Of a stretch of DNA of 64,000 nt, positions 2,240 through 37,075 are shown piece by piece. Under the pieces are notes generated by a model. The model saw only the letters and a program-made list of their open reading frames with translations. It did no database searches and was not told the DNA's origin. This DNA comes from an uncultured Gammaproteobacteria bacterium (GTDB lineage: Bacteria > Patescibacteriota > Patescibacteriia > UBA9934 > GWF2-40-263). Position numbers and translations under genes: made by a program. The stretch lies in NCBI GenBank assembly GCA_964399675.1, contig CAYNRK010000001.1:137221-201220 (forward strand). Reading direction: 5' to 3'. Positions within the stretch are counted from its first letter, which is position 1. Each line of letters begins with the position of its first letter.

Positions 2240-2263
2240 TTCTCTCTCCTTAAAGTTACACAA

Positions 2264-2296
2264 ACAAAACAACCGCCTGCGGGCGGTTGTTTTGTC
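2264..2296. terminator. Strong hairpin aacaaccgcc-tgc-gggcggttgtttt, with an A-run on one side and a T-run on the other, in a divergent intergenic region.
   Basis: 9-bp perfect stem. Member of a recurring AACAACC..GGTTGTTTTG hairpin family (also 6101-6133 and 12075-12098). Confidence 0.5.
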
Positions 2297-4686: not shown

Positions 4687-5877
4687 CTACTCAACACCCT
4701 CTCTTTTTTTGGGCCCTTCGACATCGATGATAGAGCCTCCCGGAAGCCCGACCTCCGGGAGACGATCCCTTCGAACGAGGGTGGGCTTAACCCAGACGGT
4801 TTTTTCAGCGGTCGGGTCGTTGCCTTTGCCCCGAGGTCTACGCCAATGCGCACGTCGCCAATGAGGAGCAACTTCCCCACCTGAAGCTGATGCTTTGCCC
4901 TCGAGGGCGTCCCATTCAGCTTGGGTGAGTCGAAATCGATTACGGACGACGGTTATGTCGGCACCTGTCGTTATCGCCTTCGGGTCGATTGTTTCCACCT
5001 TCGCGCTTTTCACGGCTGTGGCATGTCGGCTCTTGGGTTGAAGCGAGGCAAGGTACTGACAAAGACTCGCAACGATTCGGAAAACACCTTGTGAGCAGCG
5101 TATTGCTTCGAGCCTTTTTTCGTCGAGATCAACACCTGAGGAGAGCTTGCGGTTTGAGAGCCAATCTGCGCTTTCAACGACTCTCGTGTTATCGGTTGCG
5201 CCGAAATGGAGTCTCGTTGGGGCTCTTGTCTTGTATCGACGGATAGTTGCCAACAACGTTCGGCCCGCTTTTGAGAGGCGTTTTTTTCGAATCGACTTTG
5301 CTATAGCCCGAAACTTTGCCTCGGGTATCATCTGGAAGCTAGCTTTTGGCGGCCCATACGCGCTGATGAGTGTAAACCACCCATCATCTTCGAATTCAAG
5401 TCGACACACGACAATACAATCGCAGCTGAAATTATCGTCGATAAGAAGCGGTTCTTCTAGCGTGATCGCAAACGAATCAAATGGCCAAAGAACCTCTGAC
5501 CAGGAGAGTGTGTGCAGAGAGGTGCCCCGAAAGATGCTTGAGACTTCTCTGTTAAGGTGGAATACTTTTCTTGAAGACTGGGTCCACCCAAAAAGCGCCA
5601 ATGCGTCATAGTCTTCGGGGCTCATGTGTTCGTTCAACGTGTCGGAATAAAAGAAGCGACTCTTGTCGAAGTCTGTTTCCGGTCTGGTGCGAAGGAGAAA
5701 CTTACGAAAGGCTCGCCAGTTCCTTACAGGTCCGCTTTTTCGAGTTAGCTTATCTGGAAGATTTTGACCCACTACTGTCTGGCTAAGCCCAGTGAAGCGC
5801 GCTTCCTGCTCCCAAGTTTGGAGCACCTGATCGATTCTGGTGATAGGAATTTTGTATCCCGACACTTTGCACCCCAC
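4687..5877 (-). CDS. Hypothetical protein on a high-GC island (about 56% GC). GTG start.
   Basis: Long ORF in a GC-rich segment. No recognisable motif. Several overlapping antisense ORFs are GC artefacts. Confidence 0.45.
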   Translation of the reverse strand: MGCKVSGYKIPITRIDQVLQTWEQEARFTGLSQTVVGQNLPDKLTRKSGPVRNWRAFRKFLLRTRPETDFDKSRFFYSDTLNEHMSPEDYDALALFGWTQSSRKVFHLNREVSSIFRGTSLHTLSWSEVLWPFDSFAITLEEPLLIDDNFSCDCIVVCRLEFEDDGWFTLISAYGPPKASFQMIPEAKFRAIAKSIRKKRLSKAGRTLLATIRRYKTRAPTRLHFGATDNTRVVESADWLSNRKLSSGVDLDEKRLEAIRCSQGVFRIVASLCQYLASLQPKSRHATAVKSAKVETIDPKAITTGADITVVRNRFRLTQAEWDALEGKASASGGEVAPHWRRAHWRRPRGKGNDPTAEKTVWVKPTLVRRDRLPEVGLPGGSIIDVEGPKKREGVE

Positions 5878-6100
5878 TCTTGAAAGGAACGCAAGATATC
5901 AATTTAAGACCATTATTGGTATCTTGTCAAGTCATAAACAACCATTGACAAACACCCAAAAACAAGCAACAATACTCAAGTATGCAACAACCTTGCTACC
6001 TAATTACAGATATGAAATTCGCCGGACAAGTTTCTCCGGCTAATTTTCGTTTCTCGGGTAGCAAAGTGTTGATGTAATATTTTTCTTAGATATCAATACT

Positions 6101-6133
6101 AAAACAACCCGGGAAACCGGGTTGTTTTGTTGT
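6101..6133. terminator. Hairpin aaaacaacccgggaaaccgggttgttttg.
   Basis: Stem cccgg/ccggg with flanking AACAACC/GGTTGTT extension and a T-run. Confidence 0.5.
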
Positions 6134-6226
6134 GTAAAAGCAACATCAATAACTCAATGAGCTCAAACGGATCGTGATCGAACTGATCCGGTTGGTTTGA
6201 GCTCGCTAAATCTAAGCCGGCGTCGG

Positions 6227-6250
6227 ACCCAGGCTAAAGCCTGGGGCTAC
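6227..6250 (+). repeat. GPSL element copy (acccaggctaaagcctggggctac), intergenic.
   Basis: Matches the 25-mer cgcccaggctaaagcctggggctac found inside truB and rpsE with a single base difference. Confidence 0.75.
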
Positions 6251-6266
6251 TGCAACAGGAGATCAA

Positions 6267-7439
6267 ATGTCAGCTAGGAGAATCTACTACACTTTCTCAG
6301 CACTGATGTGTTTGGGAATGGGAGCGACTGTAACGGTTTACGCACCGTTCCTGCTTTCGATTGGCCTGACACTTGGAGAGGTGGCTTTGGTCAACTCAGT
6401 CTTCTGGGCAGTCATGATCTTGGCCGAGCTACCAACCGGAATGCTCGCTGACGGAAGATCCCGTGCGTGGTCACTCAAGGTTGGTGTTGTGCTGCAGTCG
6501 ATCGGGGCTGTTGTGTATCTAAGTGCTGTTGGTTTTTGGACAGCTGCTCTTGCAGAAGCAATTGTTGCTGTTGGCATGGCGTTTCTTTCAGGGGCGCAAT
6601 CCGCCTGGATCGCAGACGCGCTTACAAGGGAAGGCAAGTTCGATGACCTAAGGCATGTGTACGCAACCGAGCTCTTGATTCGCACGCCAATGTTTCTGGT
6701 GGGCGGAGCTATTGGAGCGCTTTTGGCACTAGTGTCGTATCGTCTGATCTGGGTGCCCCTGATTGTCATGGGAATTGTTACCGCACTTACGGCACACAGA
6801 TTCATGAACGGCCAAGGTGAACCGCTTGAACAAGTAACGGAAAAGGAAGCCTTGCTTTTGAGTCTCAGACATCTTCGCTCAAGCCGTGCGCTAAAGTGGG
6901 TGATCGCAACAATGATTGTGTTTGGATGTGTTGTATCCTTTAACCACTTTTGGGCGCCGTTTTTTGAGCCAAAGGTTGGTACACTCGGACTCTCATGGGT
7001 TTGGGCAATCATCTACCTTTCATTCATCCCATCTGGGTGGATGGTAAGAAAACTCGGAATCGGTGCCGGACAAGAAGGGAAGTACATTGTACTCTCGATT
7101 CTTATGAGTGGTCTTGGGCTTATGCTGATCGGTGTGACCGACGTGCTTGTTGGATCGCTTGTGATAGCCATGTTCCATGAGTTTGGTAGAGGCATGTTCC
7201 AACCGCTCACAGATTCGTTTGTGCAGCATCGGGTCAAGAGTGCGTATCGCGCAACGTTTGGATCACTTCAATCGTTTCTTGGAAAGATCGGCTTTGCTGT
7301 GGTGCCATTTGTAGTATGGCTCCTCATTCTTGGAAAGCCTGACACGCCCGAGACCATTACAAAAGTCTGGGTAGTGTGTGGTGCGATCATGGTGGTTGGC
7401 TCTCTTGCGCTATTCGTGCTTCGGCCGAAAAAGAACTGA
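6267..7439 (+). CDS. MFS-type transporter (about 12 TM helices). High GC (about 55%).
   Basis: Hydrophobic helices throughout. LAELPTGMLADGRSR-like loop 2-3 motif typical of MFS. Confidence 0.6.
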   Translation: MSARRIYYTFSALMCLGMGATVTVYAPFLLSIGLTLGEVALVNSVFWAVMILAELPTGMLADGRSRAWSLKVGVVLQSIGAVVYLSAVGFWTAALAEAIVAVGMAFLSGAQSAWIADALTREGKFDDLRHVYATELLIRTPMFLVGGAIGALLALVSYRLIWVPLIVMGIVTALTAHRFMNGQGEPLEQVTEKEALLLSLRHLRSSRALKWVIATMIVFGCVVSFNHFWAPFFEPKVGTLGLSWVWAIIYLSFIPSGWMVRKLGIGAGQEGKYIVLSILMSGLGLMLIGVTDVLVGSLVIAMFHEFGRGMFQPLTDSFVQHRVKSAYRATFGSLQSFLGKIGFAVVPFVVWLLILGKPDTPETITKVWVVCGAIMVVGSLALFVLRPKKN

Positions 7440-7493
7440 ACGCATCTTCGGGTGCGTTCTTTCAAATAGAAAGGATCGCCTTTTAGAAGACGA

Positions 7494-8132
7494 TCAGGCG
7501 CTTGATCTGCTCAAGCGTAGAGAGTTGCCTTTGCAGGCAGCGATCATGCGGGCGCGAGTTCGCTTGACCCAGCGATCCGCTTTTGCTTTTGTGGGAAAAG
7601 CGGCAAGCAGTACTTCGGTAAACCGATTTCCTGTCTTTGGCTCACCATCAGGCCGGATAAGGCAGGTTCGATCTGGCGACTCGTACTTGGGGTCAGGGAA
7701 CAGGGGGCCGAAGTTGGACCAGCTGACTTGGATCAAGTCTTCTTTGAAGGTAAGGTTGCTGTAACCTTCTTCATCAGGTGTTACGCTGAATCCGAGCCTG
7801 TCTGCTGAGCGTTCGATGTGTTTACCGATGCGCTCTGTATCTACACAGACCGATGTGCCCACAGGGATGAAGCGGAACGTGTAACCGTTCATTGTGAACG
7901 AATGTTCAGCCGAAGCTGGGCCAACGTGCACAACAGGCAAATCATGCTCTTCACGCAAGCTGCCTGACGTGTAGTCGTCAATGGTCCATGTTGGAACACA
8001 CACCATGCCGACCCACGCTTTTGCGGTCTTGCGCGCAAGACGCGGTTTGGTAACGCGACGGTGATACATCGCCCTTGCCATAGCAAGGTGCACCTCAAGA
8101 CCTTCGTCACGATCCTTAGGTTTAGTAGGCAT
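7494..8132 (-). CDS. Hypothetical protein, high GC.
   Basis: ORF with an AAGGGGGTG ribosome-binding site before ATG at 8132. No family motif recognised. Confidence 0.45.
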   Translation of the reverse strand: MPTKPKDRDEGLEVHLAMARAMYHRRVTKPRLARKTAKAWVGMVCVPTWTIDDYTSGSLREEHDLPVVHVGPASAEHSFTMNGYTFRFIPVGTSVCVDTERIGKHIERSADRLGFSVTPDEEGYSNLTFKEDLIQVSWSNFGPLFPDPKYESPDRTCLIRPDGEPKTGNRFTEVLLAAFPTKAKADRWVKRTRARMIAACKGNSLRLSRSSA

Positions 8133-8574: not shown

Positions 8575-10140
8575 TTATCTTGCGTATTCAATGACGCGTG
8601 TTTCACGAATGATAGTAACCTTAATCTCACCGGGATAACTAAGTTCTGCCTCGATTTTATTGGCAATATCTTTAGCCAATCTGTAGGCTGTTAGGTCATC
8701 AATTTTTTCAGGTTGAACAAAGATGCGTATTTCACGGCCGGCTTGGATAGCATAAACTTTTTCCACTCCCTCAAAAGCTGAAGCAGTTCGTTCAAGTTCT
8801 TCCATGCGTTGAATGAATTGTTCAAGCGATTGCTTGCGTGCTCCGGGACGAGCTCCACTAATAGCATCCGCAGCTTTGATTATTGCACCTTCAATTGTTC
8901 GCGGCCTGTCTTCATGATGGGCAACGGATTGATAGCAAATCTCTTCTGGGAAACCAAATTTTTTCATGATGTTGTAACCGATCTCCGGATGAGCACCTTG
9001 CATATCATGGTCAACCGCTTTTCCAATGTCATGGAACAGTCCACCTTTTTTACACACAAAAACATCAGCCCCAAGTTCTTCCGCAATCATCCCTGACAGC
9101 ATTCCAACTTCAATCGAGTGCTGAAGCGCATTCTGTCCGTAGCTTGTTCGATATCTCATGCGACCCAAAATAGAAATAAGTTTTGGATCAACGGATGAGA
9201 CTGGAATTCCAAGTTGATACAAAGCGTCTTCTCCAACTTTTCGAAGATCCTTTGCAAGAGATTTCTTTGCTGTTTGAACGGCTTCTTCAATACGTGCCGG
9301 ATGGATTCGTCCATCTTTAATAAGTGCATCAAGAGACCGCTTGGCAACTTGACGTCGGATCGGTGAAAAACCACTTACAGTGATCATCTCCGGAGTGTCG
9401 TCAACTATGATTTCTGTTCCTGTAAGCATTTCAATTGCTTTGATATTTCGACCTTCTTTTCCAATAATGCGTCCTTTCATTTCGTCATTTGGGAGTTGAA
9501 CAGATGTTGTTGTTGTGTCAGTTGAAACAGAAGAAGCAAATCGTGTTAATGCAAGAGAAAGAACTTTGCGAGATTTTTTCTCCAGTTCTTCTTCGTTCTC
9601 CTGTTCCAATTTTCTTAAGCGGCTCATAAGAGCGACTTGAGATTCCTTTTCAACAGCTTTAAGCAAACGTTCTTCTGCTTGCTCACGACTGAGCCCTGCC
9701 ACCTCTTGGAGTTTTTTAACCTGTTCTTCTTTTATGGAATGAATTTTTTCTTTGACTTCCTCTAACTGTTTGAGCTTTTCATCAAGTTTGTTTTTCTTGT
9801 CCTCAAACTCGTTCAGTTTTTGATCAAACATGTTCTCACGCTTTTCAATGCGTTTTTGTTGATCTTGTATGTCCCTGCGTCGTGTTTGTTCTTCTCGCTT
9901 TGCCTCATCAATAATTTTGATGGTTTTTTCTTTGGCAGCTAACAGAAGTTCTTGCTGCTTGGTTTTTGTTTCTTGCAGCACTTGGTGTTGTTTTGTTTTT
10001 GCTTCGGAGATCAATTTTTCAGCGCGTGCTTCAGAAGCATCAGCCATTTTTTTAGCTTGAGCTTTTCGGAATACATATCCAAGCACACCACCGATCAAAA
10101 GACCAAGAGCAATTGCAACAATAAGGTCAGTTGATAACAT
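8575..10140 (-). CDS. rny: Ribonuclease Y (N-terminal TM helix, KH domain, HD domain).
   Basis: TM helix LIVAIALGLLIGGVLGY, then a coiled coil, then KH GKEGRNIKAIE and HD HHEDRP...HDIGK. ATG at 10140; the ORF track starts at an upstream TTG. Confidence 0.9.
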   Translation of the reverse strand: MLSTDLIVAIALGLLIGGVLGYVFRKAQAKKMADASEARAEKLISEAKTKQHQVLQETKTKQQELLLAAKEKTIKIIDEAKREEQTRRRDIQDQQKRIEKRENMFDQKLNEFEDKKNKLDEKLKQLEEVKEKIHSIKEEQVKKLQEVAGLSREQAEERLLKAVEKESQVALMSRLRKLEQENEEELEKKSRKVLSLALTRFASSVSTDTTTTSVQLPNDEMKGRIIGKEGRNIKAIEMLTGTEIIVDDTPEMITVSGFSPIRRQVAKRSLDALIKDGRIHPARIEEAVQTAKKSLAKDLRKVGEDALYQLGIPVSSVDPKLISILGRMRYRTSYGQNALQHSIEVGMLSGMIAEELGADVFVCKKGGLFHDIGKAVDHDMQGAHPEIGYNIMKKFGFPEEICYQSVAHHEDRPRTIEGAIIKAADAISGARPGARKQSLEQFIQRMEELERTASAFEGVEKVYAIQAGREIRIFVQPEKIDDLTAYRLAKDIANKIEAELSYPGEIKVTIIRETRVIEYAR

Positions 10141-10445: not shown

Positions 10446-11849
10446 TCACCGTTTGGCAGCACCCGAGCAAAGACGCAGTGTTTCAAGATGCGATGGATCA
10501 TCGTTGATTCCCGCGCAGAGAGGTTCTTCGTATTCGATCCATGTTCCGGCTGGATGTGGGATTTTGTAACGCACAATCCCTTCTTCGGGAATGACATCCA
10601 TTTCGATCGCCCACAGCGAGTGGAAGGACAGGTTGAGGTTTCCTTCGGCTCTTGGAAGGAGCAAGGCAAAGGACGTTGGACGGGCGATATCTGAATCCGT
10701 CTGGTGTCGATCGTGAACACGGCGCCATAGTTCTATTGCTGAGATCAGCGGAACGCCGCCCTGCATATCCAAGATCCATTTGTAACTCCTCGTACCTATG
10801 ACTAACGCGAGGAGACGATCGAGTTGACGAAGTGTTTTCTCCGTCCTGTCCAGATCATCAATCCAGAAGTTCACTCCTGGCTCAAGTGGACACTGTGGAA
10901 GGAGTTCGATTCCGGCATTGATCAGCTGTCGTGCAAAGTGTGCAGACTCAGGTGTCACGTGCTCTGGATGAGAGACATGGGCTGAGAGCTTGATCTGGAC
11001 ACCGGTCTCATCACGAAACCCGGTAAGCAAGCGAACGAACTCTTCGTCAAACCGGAATGGAAGCCCAAGAAAGAGTGCTCCTGTGCAGATTCTGAAGCTC
11101 CGCAGGTACTTGGCTGTCTTGAGTTCATTGAGGATGCTTCTCCAGACGTTGTTCGACAGAAGCATTGGTTCGCCGCCAGAGAAGAGAATGTCATACACTC
11201 CGGAGAACTCCGGCCTTGTATTCCATTCTTGCACCAGCCATGCTGTCTGTTGAACCGGCTGTGGGATCCAAACAGTCTCTGACCTCCCATCCTTATGGAT
11301 TACTCGAAGCGGCTCTTGGAAACGCGTTTGCGGACCACGATAGCAACCTGCGCAGCCGATAGGACAGGATACGCGTCCTGCACCTCTACCAAGAATCGGG
11401 AGGAATGAGGCATATCCCGGTTTGTGCGTTGCTAGGTAAAACTTCCTGTGTCCTCCGTCGCGCAAAACGACTGAATTCGCCCTTTGGACACCGTAGGGAT
11501 CTGGAGCGGGTTTTAGTCCGAGTCGAGGAAGAAACTTCCTCACCCCTTCGTGTTGAAGGAGATTGAGCGGGAGAAGACTGAGGTCGAATGAACTCAGATA
11601 TTCTCTTAGCAGATCCTCTTTGCCTCGGAATTCCGGAAAGAGGTTAAGAAAGGAATCAAGGTCGCTGGACGTCAAGCGATTCTTGACATGCCATTTCCAA
11701 TCGCCCCAAGAAGATTCCTTGTCTCCAGTGTGCGAGGATTCGATTCCGATTCCGTTCCGGCCACAGAGTATTGCAGCCTCGGAATCGAGATGACGCGCCA
11801 TCCAGGCGTTGCGAGCTTGTCGCAAAGTCTCGGTTAAGAAGGTGCACAT
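10446..11849 (-). CDS. KamA-family radical-SAM aminomutase-like protein (lysine 2,3-aminomutase/EpmB family), on a high-GC island.
   Basis: N-terminal W-K-W-H-V-K-N-R motif. CPIGCAGCYRG is a CxxxCxxC 4Fe-4S site. FSGGEPML and SFRICTGAL correspond to KamA ISGGDGLL and RIGTRAP. AGGAG ribosome-binding site before ATG at 11849. About 57% GC. Confidence 0.65.
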   Translation of the reverse strand: MCTFLTETLRQARNAWMARHLDSEAAILCGRNGIGIESSHTGDKESSWGDWKWHVKNRLTSSDLDSFLNLFPEFRGKEDLLREYLSSFDLSLLPLNLLQHEGVRKFLPRLGLKPAPDPYGVQRANSVVLRDGGHRKFYLATHKPGYASFLPILGRGAGRVSCPIGCAGCYRGPQTRFQEPLRVIHKDGRSETVWIPQPVQQTAWLVQEWNTRPEFSGVYDILFSGGEPMLLSNNVWRSILNELKTAKYLRSFRICTGALFLGLPFRFDEEFVRLLTGFRDETGVQIKLSAHVSHPEHVTPESAHFARQLINAGIELLPQCPLEPGVNFWIDDLDRTEKTLRQLDRLLALVIGTRSYKWILDMQGGVPLISAIELWRRVHDRHQTDSDIARPTSFALLLPRAEGNLNLSFHSLWAIEMDVIPEEGIVRYKIPHPAGTWIEYEEPLCAGINDDPSHLETLRLCSGAAKR

Positions 11850-11977
11850 GTGTACTCCTAAGCCAAGTGGCACGTTCTTCTTATCAGAGATTGTTTTTGA
11901 AATCAATTTTTCAAACCAAACCAGCCGCTTTTACACGGCTGGTTTGTTGGTCCCAGATGGCCTGCCTGTCGGCAGGT

Positions 11978-12054
11978 TGGTGGACCCGACCGGATTCGAA
12001 CCGGTAATTCTCGGTGCTAACGCGAACGGGGTTACCAATTACCCCCACGGGCCC
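11978..12054 (-). tRNA. tRNA-like sequence. The acceptor stem with a G3:U70 pair (Ala-like), the D-arm, the T-arm GGTTCGAATCC and a CCA end are canonical. The anticodon arm is aberrant, so this is possibly a pseudo-tRNA or an integration-site remnant.
   Basis: Minus-strand read GGGCCCGTGGGGGTAATTGGTAACCCCGTTCGCGTTAGCACCGAGAATTACCGGTTCGAATCCGGTCGGGTCCACCA. The anticodon stem TTCGC/CCGAG has a C-C mismatch, and the loop GTTAGCA has a non-purine at position 37. Confidence 0.4.
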
Positions 12055-12098: not shown

Positions 12099-12183
12099 CG
12101 TCTTTTGTTAGCACCGAGATAGACCCGTGTGGATCCCCACTCGCTTATAGAAGATTGTAGCAACAAAATCGTGTTTTGTCAAA
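12099..12183 (+). repeat. About 85-bp direct repeat, copy A, upstream of the TylF-like methyltransferase gene.
   Basis: The sequence ...cttatagaagattgtagcaacaaaatcgtgttttgtcaaac is identical to 13166-13206. The left part gttagcaccgagat is an inverted copy of tRNA-like nt 12009-12021. Confidence 0.7.
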
Positions 12184-12250
12184 CTGATTCAAGAGAATTG
12201 ATTTAGCGAGAAAAATTGAAAAACAAATTTGAGAACGATACAATAGGTTT

Positions 12251-13000
12251 ATGAAAAACTACAGATATACTGCCCTGCAAAGGGTTGGCAAAAATATTTA
12301 CCGCAAGTTTTTTCCAGTTCCAAAGTCTCCGTGGACTGCTGGACATGTAGAAGATATTTGCAAAGTTAATCTCGTGCCTCCTGAAAAGCTCGTGGAGTTT
12401 TTTAAGGGAGCCATCAAAAAACTTCGTCATTTAAAAGAAGATGACATTGGTGATTATCTTGAGTTTGGGGTATTCAATGGAAATTCTATTGGGAGCATGC
12501 ATATAGCGAAAAAAAGTATGGGTGAAACATCAATGCGCCTCTTTGGGTTTGATGCCTTTGAAGGATTGCCTGCTGGTGCAGAGAATGAAGATGATGGTGT
12601 GTGGAAGAAAGGATTTTATTCATGTTCATTTGAAGAAATGAAAGAATGTCTTCGACGAAGAGGGGTTGATCCAGAAGATATTACTTGGGTATGTGGTTGG
12701 TATGATTCAATGCTTACAAAAGAGACTGCCAAAAAGTATAAGTTGGATAATCTCGGGATTGTTTTTGTTGATTGCGACACCTACAGTTCATCAAAGTCAG
12801 CTCTTGATTTTATTGGTCCGCTCATTACCAAACCTGTGATTATTTGTTTTGATGATTGGAAGCTCAATAATCTTGATCTAAAAGGAATGGGTGAATACAA
12901 ATCTTTTAATGAATTCTTAGATTTAAATTCTCACCTAAAGGCCGAGGAGATAAAATCCTGCAATCGAAAATCAAAATCGTTTCTTGTAACTCTGAAGTGA
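12251..13000 (+). CDS. Class I SAM-dependent O-methyltransferase, TylF/MycF (macrocin-O-MT) family-like.
   Basis: LEFGVFNGNS (Gly-rich SAM loop) and VFVDCDTYSS...ICFDDW acidic motifs typical of the TylF family. Confidence 0.55.
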   Translation: MKNYRYTALQRVGKNIYRKFFPVPKSPWTAGHVEDICKVNLVPPEKLVEFFKGAIKKLRHLKEDDIGDYLEFGVFNGNSIGSMHIAKKSMGETSMRLFGFDAFEGLPAGAENEDDGVWKKGFYSCSFEEMKECLRRRGVDPEDITWVCGWYDSMLTKETAKKYKLDNLGIVFVDCDTYSSSKSALDFIGPLITKPVIICFDDWKLNNLDLKGMGEYKSFNEFLDLNSHLKAEEIKSCNRKSKSFLVTLK

Positions 13001-13121
13001 GATTAGTCAAACCAAACTAACCCCTCCGGAACAATCCTAACGATCGTTAGGATTGTTCCGGAGAGTATTGAAGCAGTTCTTAATCAAAAACTCCCCACCG
13101 CAATAAACGAAAGGGAGCTTT

Positions 13122-13206
13122 TTGTTGGCACCAAGATTTCGATCCGTGTGGACCCAACTTGCTTATAGAAGATTGTAGCAACAAAATCGTGTTTTGTCAA
13201 ACAGTT
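13122..13206 (+). repeat. About 85-bp direct repeat, copy B, flanking the other side of the methyltransferase gene and abutting the truB 3' end.
   Basis: About 85% identical to 12099-12183, including an identical 41-bp core. Confidence 0.7.
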
Positions 13207-16324: not shown

Positions 16325-16456
16325 TGTCATCCCGAGCGAAGGCCCGTCAGACGGGCCGAAGCCGAGGGATCTCGAATTATTTATGCGAGATCTCTCCGCT
16401 CGCGGAGCCTGCCCTGAGCGAACGAAGTGAGTCGAATGGGCTCGGTCGAGATGACA
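16325..16456. repeat. TGTCAT-family GC-rich palindromic intergenic element (tgtcatcccgagcgaag...ggtcgagatgaca), copy 1.
   Basis: Terminal inverted repeats TGTCATCCCGAG/CTCGGTCGAGATGACA. Internal nested palindromes ggcccgtcagacgggcc and gagatctc. About 60% GC in an AT-rich context. Confidence 0.75.
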
Positions 16457-16462
16457 GTGTTT

Positions 16463-17401
16463 ATGAACACTCAAAACGTAACCATAATCGGTTCTGGTCC
16501 GGCAGGGTATACTGCTGCCATTTATTGCGCGCGAGCTGAGCTTGCGCCGCTTTTGTTTGAAGGTCGTCAGCTTGGTGGTCAGCCAGGTGGCCAACTCATG
16601 CTTACAACAGAGGTTGAAAATTTTCCTGGGTTTCCAGATGGGCTAATGGGGCCTGAGATAATGGAAAAGTTTAAAAAGCAAGCTGAGCGATTTGGAACAA
16701 AAATTATCACAGACGATATTGTTGAGGTTGATTTTTCCGCACGTCCGTTTGTACTCAAAACCAGTGATCAAGAATTCAAGTCACAGACAGTGATAATCTG
16801 CACAGGGGCTCAAGCAATGTGGCTTGGTGTGCCTGGCGAAGAAAAGTATAAAGGGAATGGTGTTTCAGCTTGTGCCACTTGTGATGGATTCTTTTTTAAA
16901 GATAAACAGGTGGTTATTGTTGGTGGTGGTGATGCAGCGATGGAAGAGGCAAATTTTCTCACCAAGTTTGCAAGTAAGGTTACTGTAATGGTCAGACGCG
17001 ATGAACTTCGAGCTTCAAAGATTATGCAAAAGCGTGCAATGGACAACGAGAAGATTGAGTTTGTTTGGAACACAGAAGTACAAGAAGTTCTGGGTGATGA
17101 GCAAAAAATGACTGGCGTGAAACTACTTAACAACAAAACAAACGAAACTTCAGAGTTTTCAGCAGACGGACTTTTTGTAGCTATTGGTCACAAGCCAAAT
17201 ACGGACATTTTTAAAGGCCAGCTTGATCTGGATAAAAAAGGATATATAACAGTTGAACCTGGAACAACCAAAACCAGCATAGAAGGAGTATTTGCAGGAG
17301 GCGATGTGATCGATTATAAATATCGCCAAGCAATAACAGCCGCTGGAACCGGATGCATGGCAGCACTGGACGCAGAACGTTGGCTGAGTTCAAGGGGATA
17401 A
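16463..17401 (+). CDS. trxB: Thioredoxin reductase.
   Basis: [17 protein letters not shown] motif, CATCDGFFF redox-active CxxC, and [17 protein letters not shown] motif. The ORF-track N-terminal extension overlaps the repeat element. Confidence 0.9.
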
Positions 17402-17411
17402 TCCGAATATT

Positions 17412-17450
17412 TCCCCCCTTTTCAAGGGGGGATTAAGGGGGGTTAGCATA
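17412..17450 (+). repeat. PPF element copy, intergenic, between trxB and the high-GC lipoprotein gene.
   Basis: ttcccccctttTcaaggggggattaaggggggttagcataa is nearly identical to 45633-45675. Confidence 0.8.
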
Positions 17451-17463
17451 ATTGCTAATTGAC

Positions 17464-17488
17464 AAATAGCCCTAAACGGGCTATTTTT
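17464..17488 (+). terminator. Terminator hairpin aaatagccctaaacgggctattttt after trxB.
   Basis: Stem atagccc/gggctat plus a T-run. The same stem recurs at 18186-18211. Confidence 0.6.
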
Positions 17489-17514
17489 GGTTGTCATCCT
17501 AAAAGGAGAAATGG

Positions 17515-18189
17515 ATGAAGCTTTCAGTCCTTTTCATCATCTCGCTCATATCTGCGACCGGTTGCATTTCCATGCGGCCAATTCCTGATGACTCGCAGGT
17601 CTCTTACTACGAGCCAAGGGTCGAGCGCATATTCAAAAGGCTGAAGGCCGAGTTGCCGGCAAATAGTCCCCGAATGACCTATCAGATCTGGGACTCCTCG
17701 TCTGTTCCAGAAGGAAAAAGACTTTTCGAAGCTAATCTGGACACGAACACGGTCTACATACGTGTCTTGGTTCTCAGATCCTTTAGTGAAGATACTCTTG
17801 CCTTCGGGATCGCTCATGAGATAGGTCATCTTGTGGAACACGAACGCCGTCACTCTCAGATGAGGTTGGCTTGGATCGGTGGCTCAGGAGCGATCGGTGC
17901 TGCAGTGGGTTACGCAACGGTCTGGTGGGCAGGAGCAATCTCCGGAGGTGTGGCACTTTTGGTGATTGGTCCTCCTGTCTTACTCGGTATGTTGCGTTCA
18001 GGTGAAACCGATATTGATCGATTCGCAGTTCAGCTCACCAAACGAGCTGGATTCGATGCCACGCGCGCTGTTGAAGAATGGTGCGACCTTTTCGAAGCTC
18101 TTGAAGTTTCATCTGGCCAAACTCCAGTCACTCATCCGCCTGCGCAGAAGCGATGCCCTGACTTGCAAAGAGCTCTTCATCAACCTTAG
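17515..18189 (+). CDS. Lipoprotein with an HExxH zinc-metalloprotease motif and two C-terminal TM helices (M48/M56-like). Higher GC (about 52%).
   Basis: Signal peptide with lipobox ISATGC. HEIGHLVEHE motif. Hydrophobic WIGGSGAIGAAVGYATVWWAGAISGGVALLVIGPPVLLGML. Confidence 0.5.
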   Translation: MKLSVLFIISLISATGCISMRPIPDDSQVSYYEPRVERIFKRLKAELPANSPRMTYQIWDSSSVPEGKRLFEANLDTNTVYIRVLVLRSFSEDTLAFGIAHEIGHLVEHERRHSQMRLAWIGGSGAIGAAVGYATVWWAGAISGGVALLVIGPPVLLGMLRSGETDIDRFAVQLTKRAGFDATRAVEEWCDLFEALEVSSGQTPVTHPPAQKRCPDLQRALHQP

Positions 18190-18211
18190 CCCTTACGGGC
18201 TATTTCTTTTT
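18186..18211 (+). terminator. Terminator hairpin ttagcccttacgggctatttcttttt.
   Basis: Stem tagccc/gggcta plus a T-run. Near-duplicate of 17464-17488. Confidence 0.6.
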
Positions 18212-18272
18212 GTAATTCTTGAGCTAAAGAAAATTCTCAAGTACCATGTGGGCATTACATTATCAAAATTGT

Positions 18273-20346: not shown

Positions 20347-22827
20347 ATGCCATACAATCATTTAGAAATTGAAAAAAAGTGGCAAGATAAATGGGAAGAC
20401 TCAGGTCTCTTTCATGCCAAAGATAATTCAGACAAGCAAAAGTTTTACTGTTTGATTGAATTTCCATATCCATCAGGTGTTGGACTTCATATTGGTCATT
20501 TGCGCAGCAACACAGCAATGGACATAATTGCTCGCAAACGCCGAATGGAAGGATTTAATGTTTTGTATCCAATTGGTTGGGATGCGTTTGGACTTCCAAC
20601 AGAAAACTACGCAATCAAAACTGGTCGCAAACCACAAGATGTTACAAAAGAAAATGTTGCAACTTTTAAGCAACAACTCCAGTCAATTGGTTTTTCTTTT
20701 GATTGGTCTCGAGAAATCAACACAACTGATCCGGATTATTACAAATGGACGCAGTGGATGTTTTTGGAGTTTTACAAAGCCGGCTTGGCTTACAAAGACA
20801 AGGTACGAATTAATTGGTGTTTGTCTTGCAAGATTGGTTTGGCTAATGAGGAAGTGGTTGAAGGTAAGTGTGAGCGTTGTGGAGGGGAGATTGAAAAGCG
20901 CGACAAAGAGCAATGGATGATTGCAATTACAAAGTACGCTGATCGTTTGCTCGAAGATTTGGAAACCGTTGACTACTTGGACAAGATTAAAACTCAGCAA
21001 GTAAATTGGATTGGAAAAAGTGAGGGGGCTGTTGTGAAATTTGAAGTTCTCCCCCCTTTTCAAGGGGGGACAAAAGGGGGGTTATCAGTTGGCAAAGAGC
21101 TCGAAGTTTTCACAACTCGCCCCGATACTTTGTTCGGAGCAACCTACATGGTTCTCGCACCTGAGCACCCTTTAGTGGATCAGATTACAACCGATGAGCA
21201 ACGCGTAGCTGTTGAACAATACGTAAAAGAAGCAAAAGCGCAGACAGACATTGATCGACAAAATATTGAAAAAGAAAAGACGGGGATATTTACTGGTGCT
21301 TATGCAATTAATCCAGTTAACGAGGAGGAGATTCCAATTTGGGTAGCTGACTATGTGATGATGGGTTATGGAACAGGAGCCATCATGGCAGTTCCAGCTC
21401 ATGATGAAAGAGACTCTGAGTTTGCGAAGAAGTTCGGTCAAAAAGTTATAAAGGTTATTGCAGGCGAAACGATAGGAAAAGAAGTTTATACAGGAGACGG
21501 TAAACTTATCAATTCAAGTTTCCTTAACGGTTTATTGGTTTCGGAAGCTAAAGAAGCGATAATTGAATGGCTTGAGGAAAATGGAAAAGGAAAGCGTTCA
21601 ACAAGTTACAAACTCCGTGATTGGGTTTTTTCTCGTCAAAGATATTGGGGAGAACCTATACCTCTTGTTTTTTGTGAACAATGTGCAAAACAAGAGGTAA
21701 ATTCCAAATCACAAATCACAAATTCCAGAAATGCAGGATGGGTTCCAGTTGAGGATTTGCCAGTTGAGCTTCCTGAAGTTGAAAAGTATGAACCAACTGA
21801 TACAGGCGAATCACCACTTGCTGCAATTGAAGATTGGGTGAACACAACTTGTCCAAAATGTAAGGGTCCTGCAAAACGAGAAACAGACACAATGCCAAAT
21901 TGGGCTGGATCAAGCTGGTACTTTTTGGCTTACATTATGAAAGGCATTAGCGAGAATTACCAATTTTCAATAACCAAATACCAATCTCAATTGAAAAAAT
22001 GGATGCCGGTTGATTGGTACAACGGTGGAATGGAACACACGGTTCTTCATCTTTTATATTCTCGATTTTGGAATAAGTTTTTGTTTGACCAAGGTCATGT
22101 GCCAACCAGTGAACCTTATGCAAAACGCACAAGCCATGGATTAATTTTGGCAGAGGATGGATCAAAGATGTCAAAGTCAAAGGGCAATGTTGTAAATCCA
22201 GATGAGTTGGTAACTGAGTACGGCGCTGATGCTGTGCGACTCTATCAAATGTTCATGGGGCCATTTTCAGAGCCAGTGCCATGGAGTATGAACGGCTTGA
22301 TTGGAATGCGACGATTTTTGGAAAAAGCCACAAACCTTTCTGGTCTCGTTAAAGACACTGAATCCAAAGACGTTACAAAGTCTCTTCATCAAACAATTAG
22401 AAAAGTTACAAACGATATTGAAAAGATGCGGTTCAACACAGCTGTTTCGCAGATGATGATTTTTGTGAATCTTGTAAAAGAGCAGGGGAGTATTACAAAA
22501 GAAAGTCTTGTAACATTTTTGACAATCCTGTGTCCATTTGCGCCCCATCTTACAAACGAGCTTTATGAATCTTTGGGTGGAAAAGAATTTTTGGAAACAT
22601 TAAGTTGGCCAGAGTTTGACGAAAAGCTTGCAAAGGAAGAGTTGGTTGAAGTTGCTGTGCAGATAAATGGAAAAGTTCGAAGTTCAATTATGATCGCGCC
22701 AGAGGCTGATGAAGAAGCTGCAAAAGAATTAGCACTTGCAGACGAAAATGTTATTAAGCATCTGGACGGAAAAGAAATCAAAAAAGTAATTTACGTTCAG
22801 GGGAGAATTTTAAACCTTGTTGTCTAG
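20347..22827 (+). CDS. leuS: Leucyl-tRNA synthetase. It carries an in-frame 13-aa PPF-element insertion (LPPFQGGTKGGLS) at the entry to the CP1 editing domain.
   Basis: HIGH (PYPSGVGLHIGH), KMSKS, and editing domain TTRPDTLFGATYMVLAPEHP. Confidence 0.95.
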   Translation: MPYNHLEIEKKWQDKWEDSGLFHAKDNSDKQKFYCLIEFPYPSGVGLHIGHLRSNTAMDIIARKRRMEGFNVLYPIGWDAFGLPTENYAIKTGRKPQDVTKENVATFKQQLQSIGFSFDWSREINTTDPDYYKWTQWMFLEFYKAGLAYKDKVRINWCLSCKIGLANEEVVEGKCERCGGEIEKRDKEQWMIAITKYADRLLEDLETVDYLDKIKTQQVNWIGKSEGAVVKFEVLPPFQGGTKGGLSVGKELEVFTTRPDTLFGATYMVLAPEHPLVDQITTDEQRVAVEQYVKEAKAQTDIDRQNIEKEKTGIFTGAYAINPVNEEEIPIWVADYVMMGYGTGAIMAVPAHDERDSEFAKKFGQKVIKVIAGETIGKEVYTGDGKLINSSFLNGLLVSEAKEAIIEWLEENGKGKRSTSYKLRDWVFSRQRYWGEPIPLVFCEQCAKQEVNSKSQITNSRNAGWVPVEDLPVELPEVEKYEPTDTGESPLAAIEDWVNTTCPKCKGPAKRETDTMPNWAGSSWYFLAYIMKGISENYQFSITKYQSQLKKWMPVDWYNGGMEHTVLHLLYSRFWNKFLFDQGHVPTSEPYAKRTSHGLILAEDGSKMSKSKGNVVNPDELVTEYGADAVRLYQMFMGPFSEPVPWSMNGLIGMRRFLEKATNLSGLVKDTESKDVTKSLHQTIRKVTNDIEKMRFNTAVSQMMIFVNLVKEQGSITKESLVTFLTILCPFAPHLTNELYESLGGKEFLETLSWPEFDEKLAKEELVEVAVQINGKVRSSIMIAPEADEEAAKELALADENVIKHLDGKEIKKVIYVQGRILNLVV
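21051..21086 (+). repeat. PPF element copy inside leuS (in-frame).
   Basis: ccccccttttcaaggggggacaaaaggggggtta. Confidence 0.85.
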
Positions 22828-23614: not shown

Positions 23615-24931
23615 ATGAACATTATAATGATCGGGACCGGATACGTCGGTCTAACAACCGGAGTAGGATTTGCCGAACTTGGGCACAAGGTCGCGTGCGT
23701 TGATATTGATCAGCAAAAAATTGCACAGCTTGATCTTGGTAAGTGTCCAATTTACGAACCCGGTCTTGAGGAGCTTCTCAAAAAAAATCAAGAGAATGGC
23801 AATATTGTTTTTACAACCAATTTGTCTTTGGTTATCGGCCAGGCAGAAGTTATCATCCTTGCGGTTCAAACTCCTCCAAAAGCAAATGGCGAATCCAATC
23901 TTGATTACATAATGAAAGCAGCAGAGCAGATTGGTGAACTCTTGGATCACGAAGCAATTGTTATTGTTAAAAGCACTGTGCCGGTTGGAACCAACAGAAA
24001 GATTATTGAGTGTATAAGAAAAGCACTTGAAGAAAATGGAAAAAGCGATCTCACAACAGTGGTGCAAATTGCTTCAGTTCCGGAATTTTTGCGCGAAGGG
24101 TGTGCAATGAAAGATTTTTTCAAATCAGATCGCGTGGTTATTGGAACTGATGACGAAATAGTATCTGCGATTGTGGAGCAAATGCACAGCGGAATTGAGG
24201 CTCCGGTTTTAAAAACAACACTAGAATCAGCTGAGCTCATTAAGTCAGCTTCAAATGCATTTTTGGCAACAAAGATTTCTTTCATTAATGAAATGGCAAA
24301 CATTGCAGAAATGTCTGGTGCTGATGTGCGTGAAATTGCAAAAGGAGTTGGTATGGATAGTCGAATCGGTTCAAAGTTTTTACAAGCTGGTATAGGTTAT
24401 GGCGGTTCTTGTTTTCCAAAAGATGTTTCAGCGCTTAAGGTTTTGGCAGGAGTGCGTGGATACGATTTTCATTTACTTAAAGCAGTTATTGAGGTTAACA
24501 ACAAACAAAGAGAACTTTTTTTTAAAAAGGTTCAAAAAGCCCTAAGCCCATTGAAAGGTCGTCGTATTGGTGTTTGGGGAATTACATTTAAACCAGACAC
24601 AGATGACATTCGTGATTCAGCATCAATGGATATTGTTAAGCAACTTATTGCACATGGGGCTGATGTTAGTGTTTATGATCCAAAAGGAATGGAGCATGCC
24701 AGACACGTGCTTCCGGATCACATCACCTTTGCCCCAACTCCGATTGATGCGGCAAATGGTGCGGATGCATTACTTGTTCTTACAGAATGGCCAGAGTTTA
24801 AAGACGTTTCTTTTCCAACACTTAAAGCTCGCATGATAGGCACTCAGATTTTTGATGGGCGTAACTGTCTTGCTGATTTGCATCTTGATCAATTCGGCTT
24901 TGAGTATTGTGGAGTTGGGTTGTGTACTTAA
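23615..24931 (+). CDS. ugd: UDP-glucose 6-dehydrogenase (nucleotide-sugar dehydrogenase family).
   Basis: N-terminal GTGYVGL Rossmann motif, catalytic GGSCFPKD, and C-terminal UDP-binding domain. Confidence 0.85.
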   Translation: MNIIMIGTGYVGLTTGVGFAELGHKVACVDIDQQKIAQLDLGKCPIYEPGLEELLKKNQENGNIVFTTNLSLVIGQAEVIILAVQTPPKANGESNLDYIMKAAEQIGELLDHEAIVIVKSTVPVGTNRKIIECIRKALEENGKSDLTTVVQIASVPEFLREGCAMKDFFKSDRVVIGTDDEIVSAIVEQMHSGIEAPVLKTTLESAELIKSASNAFLATKISFINEMANIAEMSGADVREIAKGVGMDSRIGSKFLQAGIGYGGSCFPKDVSALKVLAGVRGYDFHLLKAVIEVNNKQRELFFKKVQKALSPLKGRRIGVWGITFKPDTDDIRDSASMDIVKQLIAHGADVSVYDPKGMEHARHVLPDHITFAPTPIDAANGADALLVLTEWPEFKDVSFPTLKARMIGTQIFDGRNCLADLHLDQFGFEYCGVGLCT

Positions 24932-24933
24932 AC

Positions 24934-26406
24934 ATGATTGCCAACTCGCGATCCAAAACACTTGCCAGCATTCTGGCGGTTTTTTGTTTGGGGATTTTAA
25001 TTGGTCCTTTGTTTTTATTTGTACCGCAAGAAGTTTTCTTGATACTAATCATTTTGGGACTTTCAATTCTTTTTTTTAGATTTACTAAACCAACTCGTCT
25101 CATTATATTTATTTTGCTTGCTCTTTTGGTTGGGTTGTGGAGGTATGGGCAAAGTGAGATTCCTAAAAACATTTCAACTGTTCAGGATCATGTTGGTGTT
25201 GCAACACAAGTTTCAGGCACTGTCTCCTCAGAAGTGGAAAAACGTATTTCGTATCAACAATTGATTATTGATGATGTTTCTGTTGCCGGCTCTGTTTCTT
25301 ATGGAAAAGTATTGCTACGAGCACCACTTTATCCTGAGGTTTTTTATGGCAATAATGTTCAGTTTAATTGCAAACTTGAAAAACCGGAACCATTCAATGG
25401 ATTTGCTTATGACAAATTTTTGCAAACTAAAGGCGTGCTTGCTGTTTGTGCTTTTCCTCAATACTTAGACGTGATCTCAAACGAAAAGCCTTCCATGATC
25501 GGAATGTTGCTTTCTTTAAAACGTAATCTTGTTCATAGACTTCGAGAGCTTGTGCCCGAACCGCACGCTTCATTTTTATCAGGTCTTGTCTTTGGCGGAA
25601 GTTCATCATTGTCAAAAGACATTAAGGATGATTTTGCAAGAACCGGCACGTCTCATATTTTGGCAGCTTCAGGTTTTAATGTTTCACTTTTCTCGCTTAT
25701 ATTTCTTGGTTGGCTTTTAAGGAGTCCACTTGGAAGAAAAAAATCACTTGTGCTCACTGTTGGATTGTTGTTTGTATATTTGGTTTTAGCAGGAGCAACT
25801 CCAGCCGTGCTGCGTGCAACACTTATGGGGCTTTTGGTTTTGGCTTCGCAATGGGTAAAGCGAAAACCGTATTATCTTAATCTGATTCTTTTGACTGCTG
25901 CGTTCATGCTTTTTATCAACCCAAGGATTCTTCTTCATGACGTTGGGTTCCAACTATCATTTGCTGCAACCATTGCACTTATCACAATTCCACAAAAATG
26001 GGACAAAGCCTTTTCGTTTATTCCAAACAGGCTCAGGCTTAGAACGTCTTTTGTTGCATCTCTTGCCGCAATTGTTGTCACACTTCCAATTGTGCTATGG
26101 CATTTTGGAACCATCTCAGTAGTCGCACCGATTGTGAATCTTTTTGTGCTTCCGCTTGTGCCGTACGCAATGGCGATCGTGCTTGCAATGCTTGCTGTTA
26201 GTTTTGTTTCAGGCGCATTGGGATTGGTTATTAGCCTTGGAGCTTGGGCGTTCTCTTTTATCATGCTTTCAATTATTCACCTTTTCGGTCAGTTGAATTT
26301 TGCATTGGTTGAAGTTGAATACGCACAAATTTTAGGGAGCGTCATCGCAGTAATTATCGCCAGCTTTTTTCTCCGAAAACACTTATACAAAACTTCTCGA
26401 TCGTAA
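24934..26406 (+). CDS. comEC: ComEC/Rec2 competence-channel membrane part (DUF4131 plus competence domain).
   Basis: Multi-TM. GTSHILAASGFNVSL corresponds to the ComEC HLLAISGLH motif. Confidence 0.7.
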   Translation: MIANSRSKTLASILAVFCLGILIGPLFLFVPQEVFLILIILGLSILFFRFTKPTRLIIFILLALLVGLWRYGQSEIPKNISTVQDHVGVATQVSGTVSSEVEKRISYQQLIIDDVSVAGSVSYGKVLLRAPLYPEVFYGNNVQFNCKLEKPEPFNGFAYDKFLQTKGVLAVCAFPQYLDVISNEKPSMIGMLLSLKRNLVHRLRELVPEPHASFLSGLVFGGSSSLSKDIKDDFARTGTSHILAASGFNVSLFSLIFLGWLLRSPLGRKKSLVLTVGLLFVYLVLAGATPAVLRATLMGLLVLASQWVKRKPYYLNLILLTAAFMLFINPRILLHDVGFQLSFAATIALITIPQKWDKAFSFIPNRLRLRTSFVASLAAIVVTLPIVLWHFGTISVVAPIVNLFVLPLVPYAMAIVLAMLAVSFVSGALGLVISLGAWAFSFIMLSIIHLFGQLNFALVEVEYAQILGSVIAVIIASFFLRKHLYKTSRS

Positions 26407-30263: not shown

Positions 30264-30296
30264 GTGAGGCGGCAGACAGCCCGTCTGCCGCCTCAC
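30264..30296 (-). terminator. Perfect 14-bp inverted repeat gtgaggcggcagac-agccc-gtctgccgcctcac. It is the terminator of the high-GC minus-strand operon and the left island boundary.
   Basis: 14-bp perfect stem overlapping the stop codon, followed on the minus strand by a U-rich tract. Confidence 0.6.
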
Positions 30297-31123
30297 GTCG
30301 TTGTTGAGTTGCCAAGCCACCAGGTTGACCGGGCAATCATGCCCAGCTCGCCTGTGTCTAGCTTGTAGTAGGGATTGAGATCGGTTGCCTTGCCGCACGA
30401 ATGTACGGGCATGCCAACCCTTGCGAAGTGGTCGACGACCTGATCGTCACCCAAGATGAGCTTTTGGTACGCACCGCGCCAGACCTTGCGGTCGGTAGCG
30501 CGGTCGGTGACCTTGACATTGATTGTCATGATGCCTGTTGTTGGGTCAAAGCGTGGGGTGCGTGCGTCGTTGACAGGGGTGCCGTCGAGTTCAGCTTGCC
30601 AGACAACAGTTTTCCCAACACGACATCGATCAAGGTAGCCTTGTCCGATGAAGTCCATGAGAAACGCTCCGTCTTTTGCCAGCGGATCGATCATGCCGCG
30701 CGTGATGCGCAGCAGGAGATCCGGATCAACAACATCACCGAAGGAGTTGCCAAGCAAGATACTCGCATCGAAGCGTTCATTAGTGCGCCATGTGGTGAGA
30801 TCTCCAATGTGGAGTTGGACACGTGGATCTTGGCCGTGGCTTTTGAGAGCCTTGGCCACGCACTTTGGCGAAAGATCTACACCAACGATTCGTTGAACAC
30901 CGGACCACAGCAGAGCGTTGATGTGTCTGCCCGTGCCAAAACAGGGCAGGAAGACGCTCCTGGGTACGTGGCCAATAAGTCGGATGGCAGTTCCGACTTC
31001 AGCCCAGGCAAGCGCGCTGTTGTCATGGACATCTCTATCGAGCTGTTCCATCACGTCATAGTGACGCGCAACATCGAACTGGGCCGGAGGTTCTGTTCTG
31101 TGTTGATGAGCGGTAGCTTGCAT
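30293..31123 (-). CDS. Class I SAM-dependent methyltransferase (high GC, about 60%).
   Basis: LPCFGTGRH...VGVDLS SAM-binding motif I and post-I acidic residue. Its start overlaps the stop of the upstream gene (TGATG). Confidence 0.65.
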   Translation of the reverse strand: MQATAHQHRTEPPAQFDVARHYDVMEQLDRDVHDNSALAWAEVGTAIRLIGHVPRSVFLPCFGTGRHINALLWSGVQRIVGVDLSPKCVAKALKSHGQDPRVQLHIGDLTTWRTNERFDASILLGNSFGDVVDPDLLLRITRGMIDPLAKDGAFLMDFIGQGYLDRCRVGKTVVWQAELDGTPVNDARTPRFDPTTGIMTINVKVTDRATDRKVWRGAYQKLILGDDQVVDHFARVGMPVHSCGKATDLNPYYKLDTGELGMIARSTWWLGNSTTT

Positions 31124-36713: not shown

Positions 36714-36929
36714 ATGGCAAAAAAGAGACCAAAGGTCAGTTACGATTCAGATGCAAAGATTCTTTCTATAAGAGTTTCGTCTAAAAAAAGTGTGGATTCA
36801 GATATTCATGGTAATGTTGTTGTTGATTATGGAAAAGACGGACAACTTGTGAACGTTGACATTATGGACATATCGCTCTCGGAGTTTAAACGAGAACCAG
36901 TTATTAGAAAAATAATCGCCACAGTATAA
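36714..36929 (+). CDS. DUF2283-family small protein.
   Basis: YDSDAKILSIRVS...GNVVVDYGKDGQLVNVDIMD pattern typical of DUF2283. Confidence 0.5.
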   Translation: MAKKRPKVSYDSDAKILSIRVSSKKSVDSDIHGNVVVDYGKDGQLVNVDIMDISLSEFKREPVIRKIIATV

Positions 36930-36950
36930 AAGTTTTTTAATAAAAAAATC

Positions 36951-36977
36951 AAAAAACCGGCCTTAGGTCGGTTTTTT
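36951..36977 (+). terminator. Terminator aaaaaaccggccttaggtcggtttttt.
   Basis: GC stem with A/T flanks. Confidence 0.5.
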
Positions 36978-37075
36978 AAATTGGATTTTTTTGATATAAT
37001 AATTTCTGTCCAAACACCGGCTTGGTTGCGCATAGCCAAGAAGGGCATTGAACAACGAGCGACAAGGAGGACACC

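Follow-up and report, generated by a model that had tools for sequence, protein, structure and literature searches.

A probable intrastrand-triplex-type dispersed repeat in a Patescibacteria genome, in frame within genes and at the edges of two high-GC inserts

Rickettsia palindromic elements, ~100-150 bp in length and with family consensus sequences, are reportedly dispersed palindromic repeats that lie in frame within genes, essential ones included (Ogata and colleagues are said to have described them so in 2000). Class II intrastrand triplex motifs place a pyrimidine, a purine and a reverse-Hoogsteen purine block on one strand of DNA; BoxC was the name under which they were first reported in E. 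coli, PIT elements a later one (Holder et al. 2015, PMC4666352). The element designated TM_ECO is ~37 nt long, with TTA as the second loop of its type A, and E. coli K-12 has 23 copies, every one intergenic and with no transposase or integrase nearby. In vitro, a single-stranded TM_ECO oligonucleotide adopts a triplex, none having been detected in vivo, and PIT/TM_ECO elements in E. coli are without promoter or terminator activity. TM_ECO loci vary more between strains than control loci do, and the idea has been raised that such motifs could be remnants of horizontal transfer (all from Holder et al. 2015, PMC4666352).

The repeat described here, PPF, has the same three-block layout. The window (the whole 64-kb stretch of DNA that was analysed, from a Patescibacteria genome) yields six copies in a search with a 19-nt core, or ~1 per 11 kb, where 0.02 would be expected by chance (Table 1). 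An earlier, sequence-only reading of this DNA had counted three; the extra three are within the genes for LeuRS and, twice, an APH-like kinase, which are low-GC core genes. That reading had also described the two intergenic copies as nearly identical over about 40 bp, with a ttagcataa tail, and this was correct: 42 of 43 positions agree, the sole difference being a G>A change in copy 2, and both end with the TTAGCATAA tail. A 30-mer is common to the two, with an expectation of 0.00 in shuffled sequence. Four of the six copies are in frame within ORFs, with all three sense frames represented. The intergenic subtype has TAA and TAG stops in two frames; these are missing from the coding copies, in which the spacer variants GAGAAAAG, ACAAAAG and GTTAGAG eliminate stop codons. 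The copy that had been placed in a moderately GC-rich GNAT gene is indeed in an ORF of GC 0.50 (1601-2272), the identity of which as a GNAT was not confirmed by Pfam. Jointly, the observations lead us to think that PPF is probably a dispersed repeat of ~40 nt, of the intrastrand-triplex type, which persists where it is harmless and is not a dedicated integration site.

Table 1. PPF copies in the window, with the two inserts and the features that adjoin them
Feature	Position	Strand	Description
PPF, ORF copy	2017-2057	-	In frame in ORF 1601-2272 (minus strand, GC 0.50); encodes SPPFSRGEKRGVS
trxB (thioredoxin reductase)	16427-17401		
Insert 1	17402-18245		Between trxB and gdh; holds PPF, a TTGACA promoter-like box, the M48 gene and a hairpin; absent from two relatives
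PPF, intergenic copy 1	17409-17451	+	ATTTCCCCCCTTTTCAAGGGGGGATTAAGGGGGGTTAGCATAA; starts 8 nt past the trxB stop codon, upstream of the M48 gene; layout T-CCCCCC / TTTTCAA / GGGGGG-A / TTA / A-GGGGGG / TTAGCATAA
Terminator-like hairpin, TAGCCCTAAACGGGCTATTTTT	17467-17488	+	Second copy at 18187-18208, after the M48 stop codon
M48-like lipoprotein gene	17515-18189		GC 0.51, neighbours 0.40-0.44
PPF, LeuRS copy	21047-21087	+	In frame in LeuRS (20347-22827); encodes LPPFQGGTKGGLS; variable loop of the editing domain
PPF, kinase copy 1	44758-44796	+	In frame in the APH-like kinase gene (44304-45341); encodes LPLFKGELEGVS
PPF, kinase copy 2	44908-44946	+	In frame in the APH-like kinase gene; encodes PPLFKGGLGGVT
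Insert 2	45614-49526 (limits approximate)		From the conserved spacer on the APH side to the promoter of the Phd-like gene; holds PPF, a terminator-like hairpin and three minus-strand genes (45720-47057, 47279-48217, 48475-49401)
PPF, intergenic copy 2	45630-45672	+	Left of the 3-gene high-GC block; third arm GGGAGG

All six copies present their parts in the same order: pyrimidine arm, 3-nt loop, purine arm, short loop, mirror purine arm and TTA. The hairpin, CCCCCCTT-TTC-AAGGGGGG, has a 9-bp stem and a 3-nt loop; its pyrimidine arm is C5-8 plus 0-2 T/C, and the second loop has 2-4 nt and is often TTA. The predicted stability of the hairpin as DNA is -9.6 to -16.2 kcal/mol, with z-scores down to -5 (-11.1 kcal/mol and z = -2.7 for copy 1). 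To judge from its sequence, the third arm can fold back on to the hairpin in single-stranded DNA, forming G.G:C and A.A:T triads, seven per copy. From the window, a purpose-written finder of class II triplexes retrieves the six PPF copies, each with 7 triads and at most one mismatch, and no other sequence; 0.03 matches are expected in randomised sequence. The three blocks of the published definition (pyrimidine, reverse-complement purine, mirror purine) are present in every copy, and 7 triads fall within the prescribed stem of 6-15. The first loop measures 7 nt (3 nt when the TT/AA pairs are assigned to the stem), which fits a 0-10 nt rule (that of Hoyne et al. 2000, in the portion relayed by Holder et al. 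2015, PMC4666352) and is at the margin of the 1-6 nt range of the ITxF definition (Holder et al. 2015, PMC4666352).

The three arms covary in 117 copies that were taken, among the matches listed, from ~100 stretches of public genomes. Bases 5' of the C-run form Watson-Crick pairs with those 3' of the first G-run (TCT/AGA, CCT/AGG, GT/AC), and the bases 5' of the second G-run (AGA, GGA, CA) mirror the ones that follow the first. Where sequence types are informative, the arm extensions are mirror repeats in 19 cases and direct repeats in none (19 vs 0); the three runs covary in length (5/5/5, 6/6/6, 7/7/7), and 7-8 triads are possible in 84% of the copies. Mirror arms are what a purine-motif triple helix requires, whereas copying processes generate direct or inverted repeats and not mirror ones. 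Pairing of the third arm with CCCCC+TTT instead was considered and rejected, because it leaves the mirror covariation (AC..CA, AGG..GGA) unaccounted for.

PPF is not confined to this organism. A scan with CCCCCTTTTCAAGGGGG-N6-10-GGGGTTA, one genome per species, finds the core in at least 101 genome stretches from several classes of Patescibacteria, Gammaproteobacteria and other phyla. The core matches listed come from Photobacterium, Vibrio, Marinomonas, Oceanimonas, Cellvibrio, Kangiellaceae and Thiomargarita, and from metagenome-assembled genomes labelled Elusimicrobia, Cloacimonadota, Anaerolineaceae and Phycisphaerae. Some complete genomes have many copies, that of Photobacterium halotolerans DSM 18316 for example. 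That the core is nearly identical in different phyla could be due to transfer, or else to convergence on a motif this simple. Among the matches listed in other genomes, copies within long open frames are sense in 34 cases and antisense in 7, an excess that is to be expected, since two of the antisense frames contain stops (TAA and TGA). Scanning metagenomes for the intergenic subtype produced only 5 unrelated matches and no further copies from this organism. A viral scan produced 1 match in 2.9 million contigs, which argues that PPF is not phage-borne.

The in-frame copies have counterparts in homologous proteins, the best non-identical LeuRS and kinase homologues (55-68% identity) being labelled Candidatus Uhrbacteria or Patescibacteria. 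The LeuRS insertion lies between 'KFEV' and 'LEVFTTRPDT' in the editing domain, where homologues have a short variable loop; some have related inserts in the same loop (PPLTKGGRGGV, SPLPKGGQRGV), others a loop peptide from different repeat families (IASVASLPRND). The peptide of kinase copy 2 is an additional loop of ~10 residues behind 'SNILF': the 'ILFKKVPPLFKGGLGGVTA' of the window corresponds to 'ILFD-x-KG-K-A' in most homologues, six others have their own PPxKGGxxGV insert at the second-copy loop, and one has an LPLPKGELEGV segment in common with the window at the first site. Different Patescibacteria lineages thus have different repeat-derived peptides in the presumed surface loops of LeuRS and kinase, and the loops look like sites where several repeat families have repeatedly landed or been tolerated. 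By analogy with Rickettsia palindromic elements, PPF would survive in permissive protein loops. The third arm of kinase copy 2 also varies in the population: a G6 variant (SUTE22-1, SAMN10231902; window 44930-44980) of the G7 run is frameshifted, shortening the kinase to 271 residues, with two further base changes within 40 nt downstream in otherwise identical sequence. Local instability could be the cause, as could homopolymer sequencing errors.

Each intergenic copy had further been said to lie at a transition from low-GC to high-GC DNA, and so it does: the M48 gene has GC 0.51 and the genes of insert 2 (the stop codon of the first gene being 48 nt from copy 2) have GC 0.54-0.66. Gene order was compared with that of two relatives. 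In GCA_964374035 and GCA_040960315 the order is HU, RNase Y, TruB, IF2, Trx, TrxB, GDH, x, LeuRS, continuing with NUDIX, UDPG-DH, ComEC, MBL and NDK; the trxB-gdh gap in both is 37-41 nt, with neither M48 gene nor PPF. The second relative has S7, EF-G, methyltransferase, APH, a 347-nt spacer, Phd-like and EF-Tu in succession, and the 45.7-49.4 kb island is absent. Its spacer can be aligned with the window up to GATTTTGTCAA (~45613), and alignment resumes at ~49527, running into the Phd promoter. (The adjoining 45450-45613, non-coding and with a leftward promoter, is conserved in a relative, at 9050-9272, with ~60% identical proteins; it has no Rfam match and is a candidate small RNA.) Gene order thus shows the M48 gene, and likewise the block at 45.7-49.4 kb, to be a lineage-specific insert.

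The M48 protein returned only itself in a homologue search, so that no donor could be named, and none of the three genes of insert 2 has a Pfam match. The two copies of the terminator-like hairpin (TAGCCCT(A)AACGGGCTATTT) constitute a direct repeat flanking the M48 gene, and the pair may have arisen by duplication in the course of the gene's insertion. The genes at 47279-48217 and 48475-49401 are paralogues with GC3 ~0.85 whose C-terminal ~65 residues differ at one position, which suggests recent duplication or gene conversion. The window has many other separate genes of 50-66% GC, mostly without a Pfam match, in a ~40% GC genome, and is unusually patchy for a small genome. High-GC regions are found at 1-909, 4687-8132 (where gene 4687-5877 has a precomputed AcrVA2-like match), 10446-11906, 30293-33051 and 36827-37684, as well as in the flanks (L125 2001-6500 and L121 19501-20500). 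At least one of these genes, 10446-11906, is missing from the syntenic relatives; beside it, ARAGORN places a tRNA-Ala with anticodon AGC (11978-12054, minus strand), and an Rfam gathering scan of the window reported no tRNA. There is a second, unrelated repeat family in the window, ~100 nt long, with copies at 40860-40970 (minus strand, between rpsL and rpsG) and 63790-63890 (plus strand, after the methionine aminopeptidase gene) that are 99% identical over 97 nt and have MITE-like ends, TGTCATTTCGACCGAGC ... GCTCGGGATGACA. A perfect 19-bp stem with a 3-nt loop is located at 40334-40374, just upstream of the rpsL coding region.

Could the junctions be assembly chimeras, generated through a repeat common to low-GC and high-GC organisms? 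Short-read contigs do end within copies (at 17419, 44933 and 45631), which is expected of a multi-copy repeat, and one scaffold has an N-gap at copy 1. Nevertheless, the trxB-PPF-M48 junction is base-identical in at least three independent assemblies (ENA SCRA20-1, ENA SUTE22-1 and JGI 3300009374) and the APH-PPF-island junction is present in at least five, from different samples and projects and with contigs that extend up to 89-226 kb, and the repeat-free right borders are equally well joined to conserved core promoters. By exact-protein look-up, the window belongs to groundwater metagenomes (the three just named, together with JGI 3300009106 and 3300009107), with contigs up to 226 kb. Base-identical junctions in independent assemblies rule out a chimera, to which we attach practically no probability, and the high-GC DNA is resident, as the sequence-only reading had argued. 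Its companion proposal, that PPF or the site it marks is a preferred integration point, has not fared as well. In one form of that proposal PPF would be a recombination site or the terminus of a mobile cassette (resembling attC, or the end of a transposon or rolling-circle element), with foreign genes entering at it or travelling with it. Both intergenic copies are indeed at the extreme left edge of an insert, in the same orientation and with the insert on their 3' side, copy 1 being 8 nt and copy 2 12 nt from the last base that can be aligned with relatives; they are almost the same sequence despite unrelated cargo; TTGTCAA is present at either border of the insert at 45.6-49.5 kb; and the suggestion that such motifs are remnants of horizontal transfer (Holder et al., PMC4666352) is in keeping with it. 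On the other hand, GC borders make up 13 of the 35 intergenic segments that are long enough for PPF and 36% of placeable positions, so that two matches have P ~0.13 and the co-location by itself is not beyond chance; 11 of the 13 borders are without PPF. An additional 17 kb of flank (stretches L121 and L125) has further islands and no further copies, and the island between RNase Y and TruB, also missing from the relatives, has no copy. The right borders of the inserts have no copy or half-site, neither integrase nor transposase was found in or near either insert, and searches for inverted ends, a second att-like half-site, a convincing target duplication and an empty site at close evolutionary range found none. 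PPF lacks inverted terminal repeats, and its fit to attC is poor, as specified below. TTGTCAA need not be a target duplication and is not counted as one: it is the reverse of the TTGACA -35 box, of which there are two in leftward promoters here, and a third such promoter repeat flanks a TylF-like gene. (That ~85-nt direct repeat, at 12145-12232 and 13115-13203, holds a near-consensus leftward promoter, TTGACA-17 nt-TACAAT on the minus strand; the TylF-like methyltransferase gene between, 12251-13000, is absent in relatives.) Foreign DNA is absent from the vicinity of the four copies, out of six, that lie within genes. Related genomes in which the element has no foreign DNA beside it would, on the terms of the sequence-only reading, speak against an integration point, and in spirit that is what other genomes offer: among the matches listed there is no GC step at copies, the median |dGC| being 0.033, vs 0.032 for random positions (500-nt windows for 94 copies, 1000-nt windows for 71; p = 0.16). 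The proximity of the copies to junctions is suggestive, as two cases noticed after the fact can be, and a distance of 8-12 nt from the breakpoint, also remarked post hoc, is tighter than a loose 'fragile spacer' idea predicts. The integration-point reading, with its published parallel in the variable DNA around TM_ECO, is thus suggestive and not established; that PPF is a recombination site or cassette terminus, we consider unlikely.

Two further proposals would make PPF a signal. As a cis-regulatory signal at operon boundaries (terminator, insulator, protein-binding site or RNA switch) it would be suitably placed in the spacers, with copy 1 directly behind trxB and ahead of a TTGACA box, copy 2 between convergent transcription units, and a hairpin that is predicted to be stable. 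This is very unlikely, however, for an element whose hairpin has no trailing T-run, which has no match in Rfam, and the majority of whose copies are in coding sequence in three different frames. The E. coli PIT elements have neither promoter nor terminator activity (Holder et al. 2015, PMC4666352). Moreover, a mirror repeat has no symmetry that a protein dimer can use. PPF as a DNA uptake signal for natural transformation would account for an over-represented, oriented sequence found in genes and spacers alike, and the window encodes ComEC (24907-26406). Known uptake signals occur at ~1 per kb, however, an order of density that PPF does not approach; they are lineage-specific, whereas the PPF core is the same in unrelated phyla; and three-way structural covariation is not expected of a signal that is read by a protein. 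We give this proposal hardly any credence.

We return to the reading of PPF as a triplex-type repeat that persists where it is harmless. PPF would multiply within genomes, a mobility that we infer from its distribution only, neither a transposase nor any other mobilising enzyme having been found. It would persist solely at harmless places, that is, in intergenic spacers and protein surface loops, with the copies in genes retained in sense orientation and with spacer variants that keep the frame open. The two intergenic copies lie at the left edge of two independently inserted high-GC gene blocks, and the most economical reading of their presence there may be that structure-forming repeats and acquired DNA both accumulate in permissive or fragile spacers. 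The raised local variability around the E. coli members of the class (Holder et al., PMC4666352) is a parallel for fragile spacers. A more adventurous proposal is that triplex-type repeats in the small genomes of naturally competent Patescibacteria are places at which foreign DNA is captured, or that PPF is a recombination structure at the end of gene cassettes of an undescribed, integrase-less kind. In the first case the structure would stall replication or be cut and incoming DNA would be joined a few bases away, leaving the copies to mark the left edge of acquired gene blocks; we regard the proposal as quite improbable. What PPF adds to a subject that goes back to the 1990s, when intrastrand-triplex repeats became known, is their occurrence in a CPR/Patescibacteria genome, in frame inside essential genes, with related inserts in the same protein loops in other lineages, and with two copies within ~10 nt or so of insertion junctions defined by synteny. 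If the association with junctions were true genome-wide, it would provide a testable link from non-B DNA structure to gene acquisition in organisms that depend on imported DNA. There is also a practical aspect that matters for annotating such genomes: PPF breaks short-read assemblies, and its C/G runs cause frameshift calls.

It remains to compare PPF with known kinds of repeat. A full-text literature search for the core sequence and the encoded peptides found no papers, and Rfam, applied with gathering thresholds to the whole window and permissively around both intergenic copies, found no match. PPF resembles REP/REPIN sequences as a short (20-40 nt), GC-rich, multi-copy hairpin repeat, at times in inverted pairs. 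REPs, in contrast, are extragenic, species-specific and tied to a RAYT gene, and the third, mirror arm is a feature of PPF and not of REP; no RAYT (Y1 HUH transposase) gene is found among the scanned ORFs of the window, and on these features PPF is probably not of the REP-RAYT kind. Like an integron attC, PPF is a structured site that folds as a single strand, borders a promoter-less or self-contained gene cassette and ends in GTTA. An attC site, however, has 57-141 nt as against ~40, has paired RYYYAAC/GTTRRRY boxes, depends on an integron integrase and flanks every cassette, whereas PPF is at 2 of at least 13 borders; this assignment was also rejected, PPF having no 5' AAC (RYYYAAC) box, a 3' GTTAGCA that does not fit GTTRRRY, and neither integrase nor array. 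Nor is PPF a MITE: its ends (ATTTCC... and ...TTAGCATAA) are not inverted repeats, and none of the six copies has a flanking duplication.

With Rickettsia palindromic elements PPF has in common its location in frame within protein-coding genes (LeuRS, the APH-like kinase twice, ORF 1601-2272), where it is tolerated as an additional surface peptide. These elements differ in their length, in their restriction to Rickettsia and in having no mirror purine arm; PPF, at ~40 nt, adds ~10-13 residues. The likeness to BoxC/PIT/TM_ECO goes further: three blocks on one strand in ~37-43 nt, TTA as a frequent second loop, numerous near-identical copies in a genome without a transposase linked to them, now and then an inverted pair (for PPF, in one genome stretch, L016) and a reported association with locally variable DNA. 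The differences from TM_ECO are in the arms and first loop (C5-8/G5-8 and TTTTCAA in PPF vs CCCTCNCCC/GGGNGAGGG), in the number of triads (7 vs 9), in the host, which is a Patescibacteria (CPR) genome, and in location: 4 of the 6 PPF copies in the window are in frame within genes, and TM_ECO is reported to be exclusively intergenic in E. coli K-12. The TM_ECO pattern, CCCTCNCCC-N3-6-GGGNGAGGG-N3-GGGNGAGGG, has 0 matches in the window. With the layout of a class II triplex motif and no match to the E. coli consensus, PPF belongs to a structural kind already known, of which it is a new sequence family.
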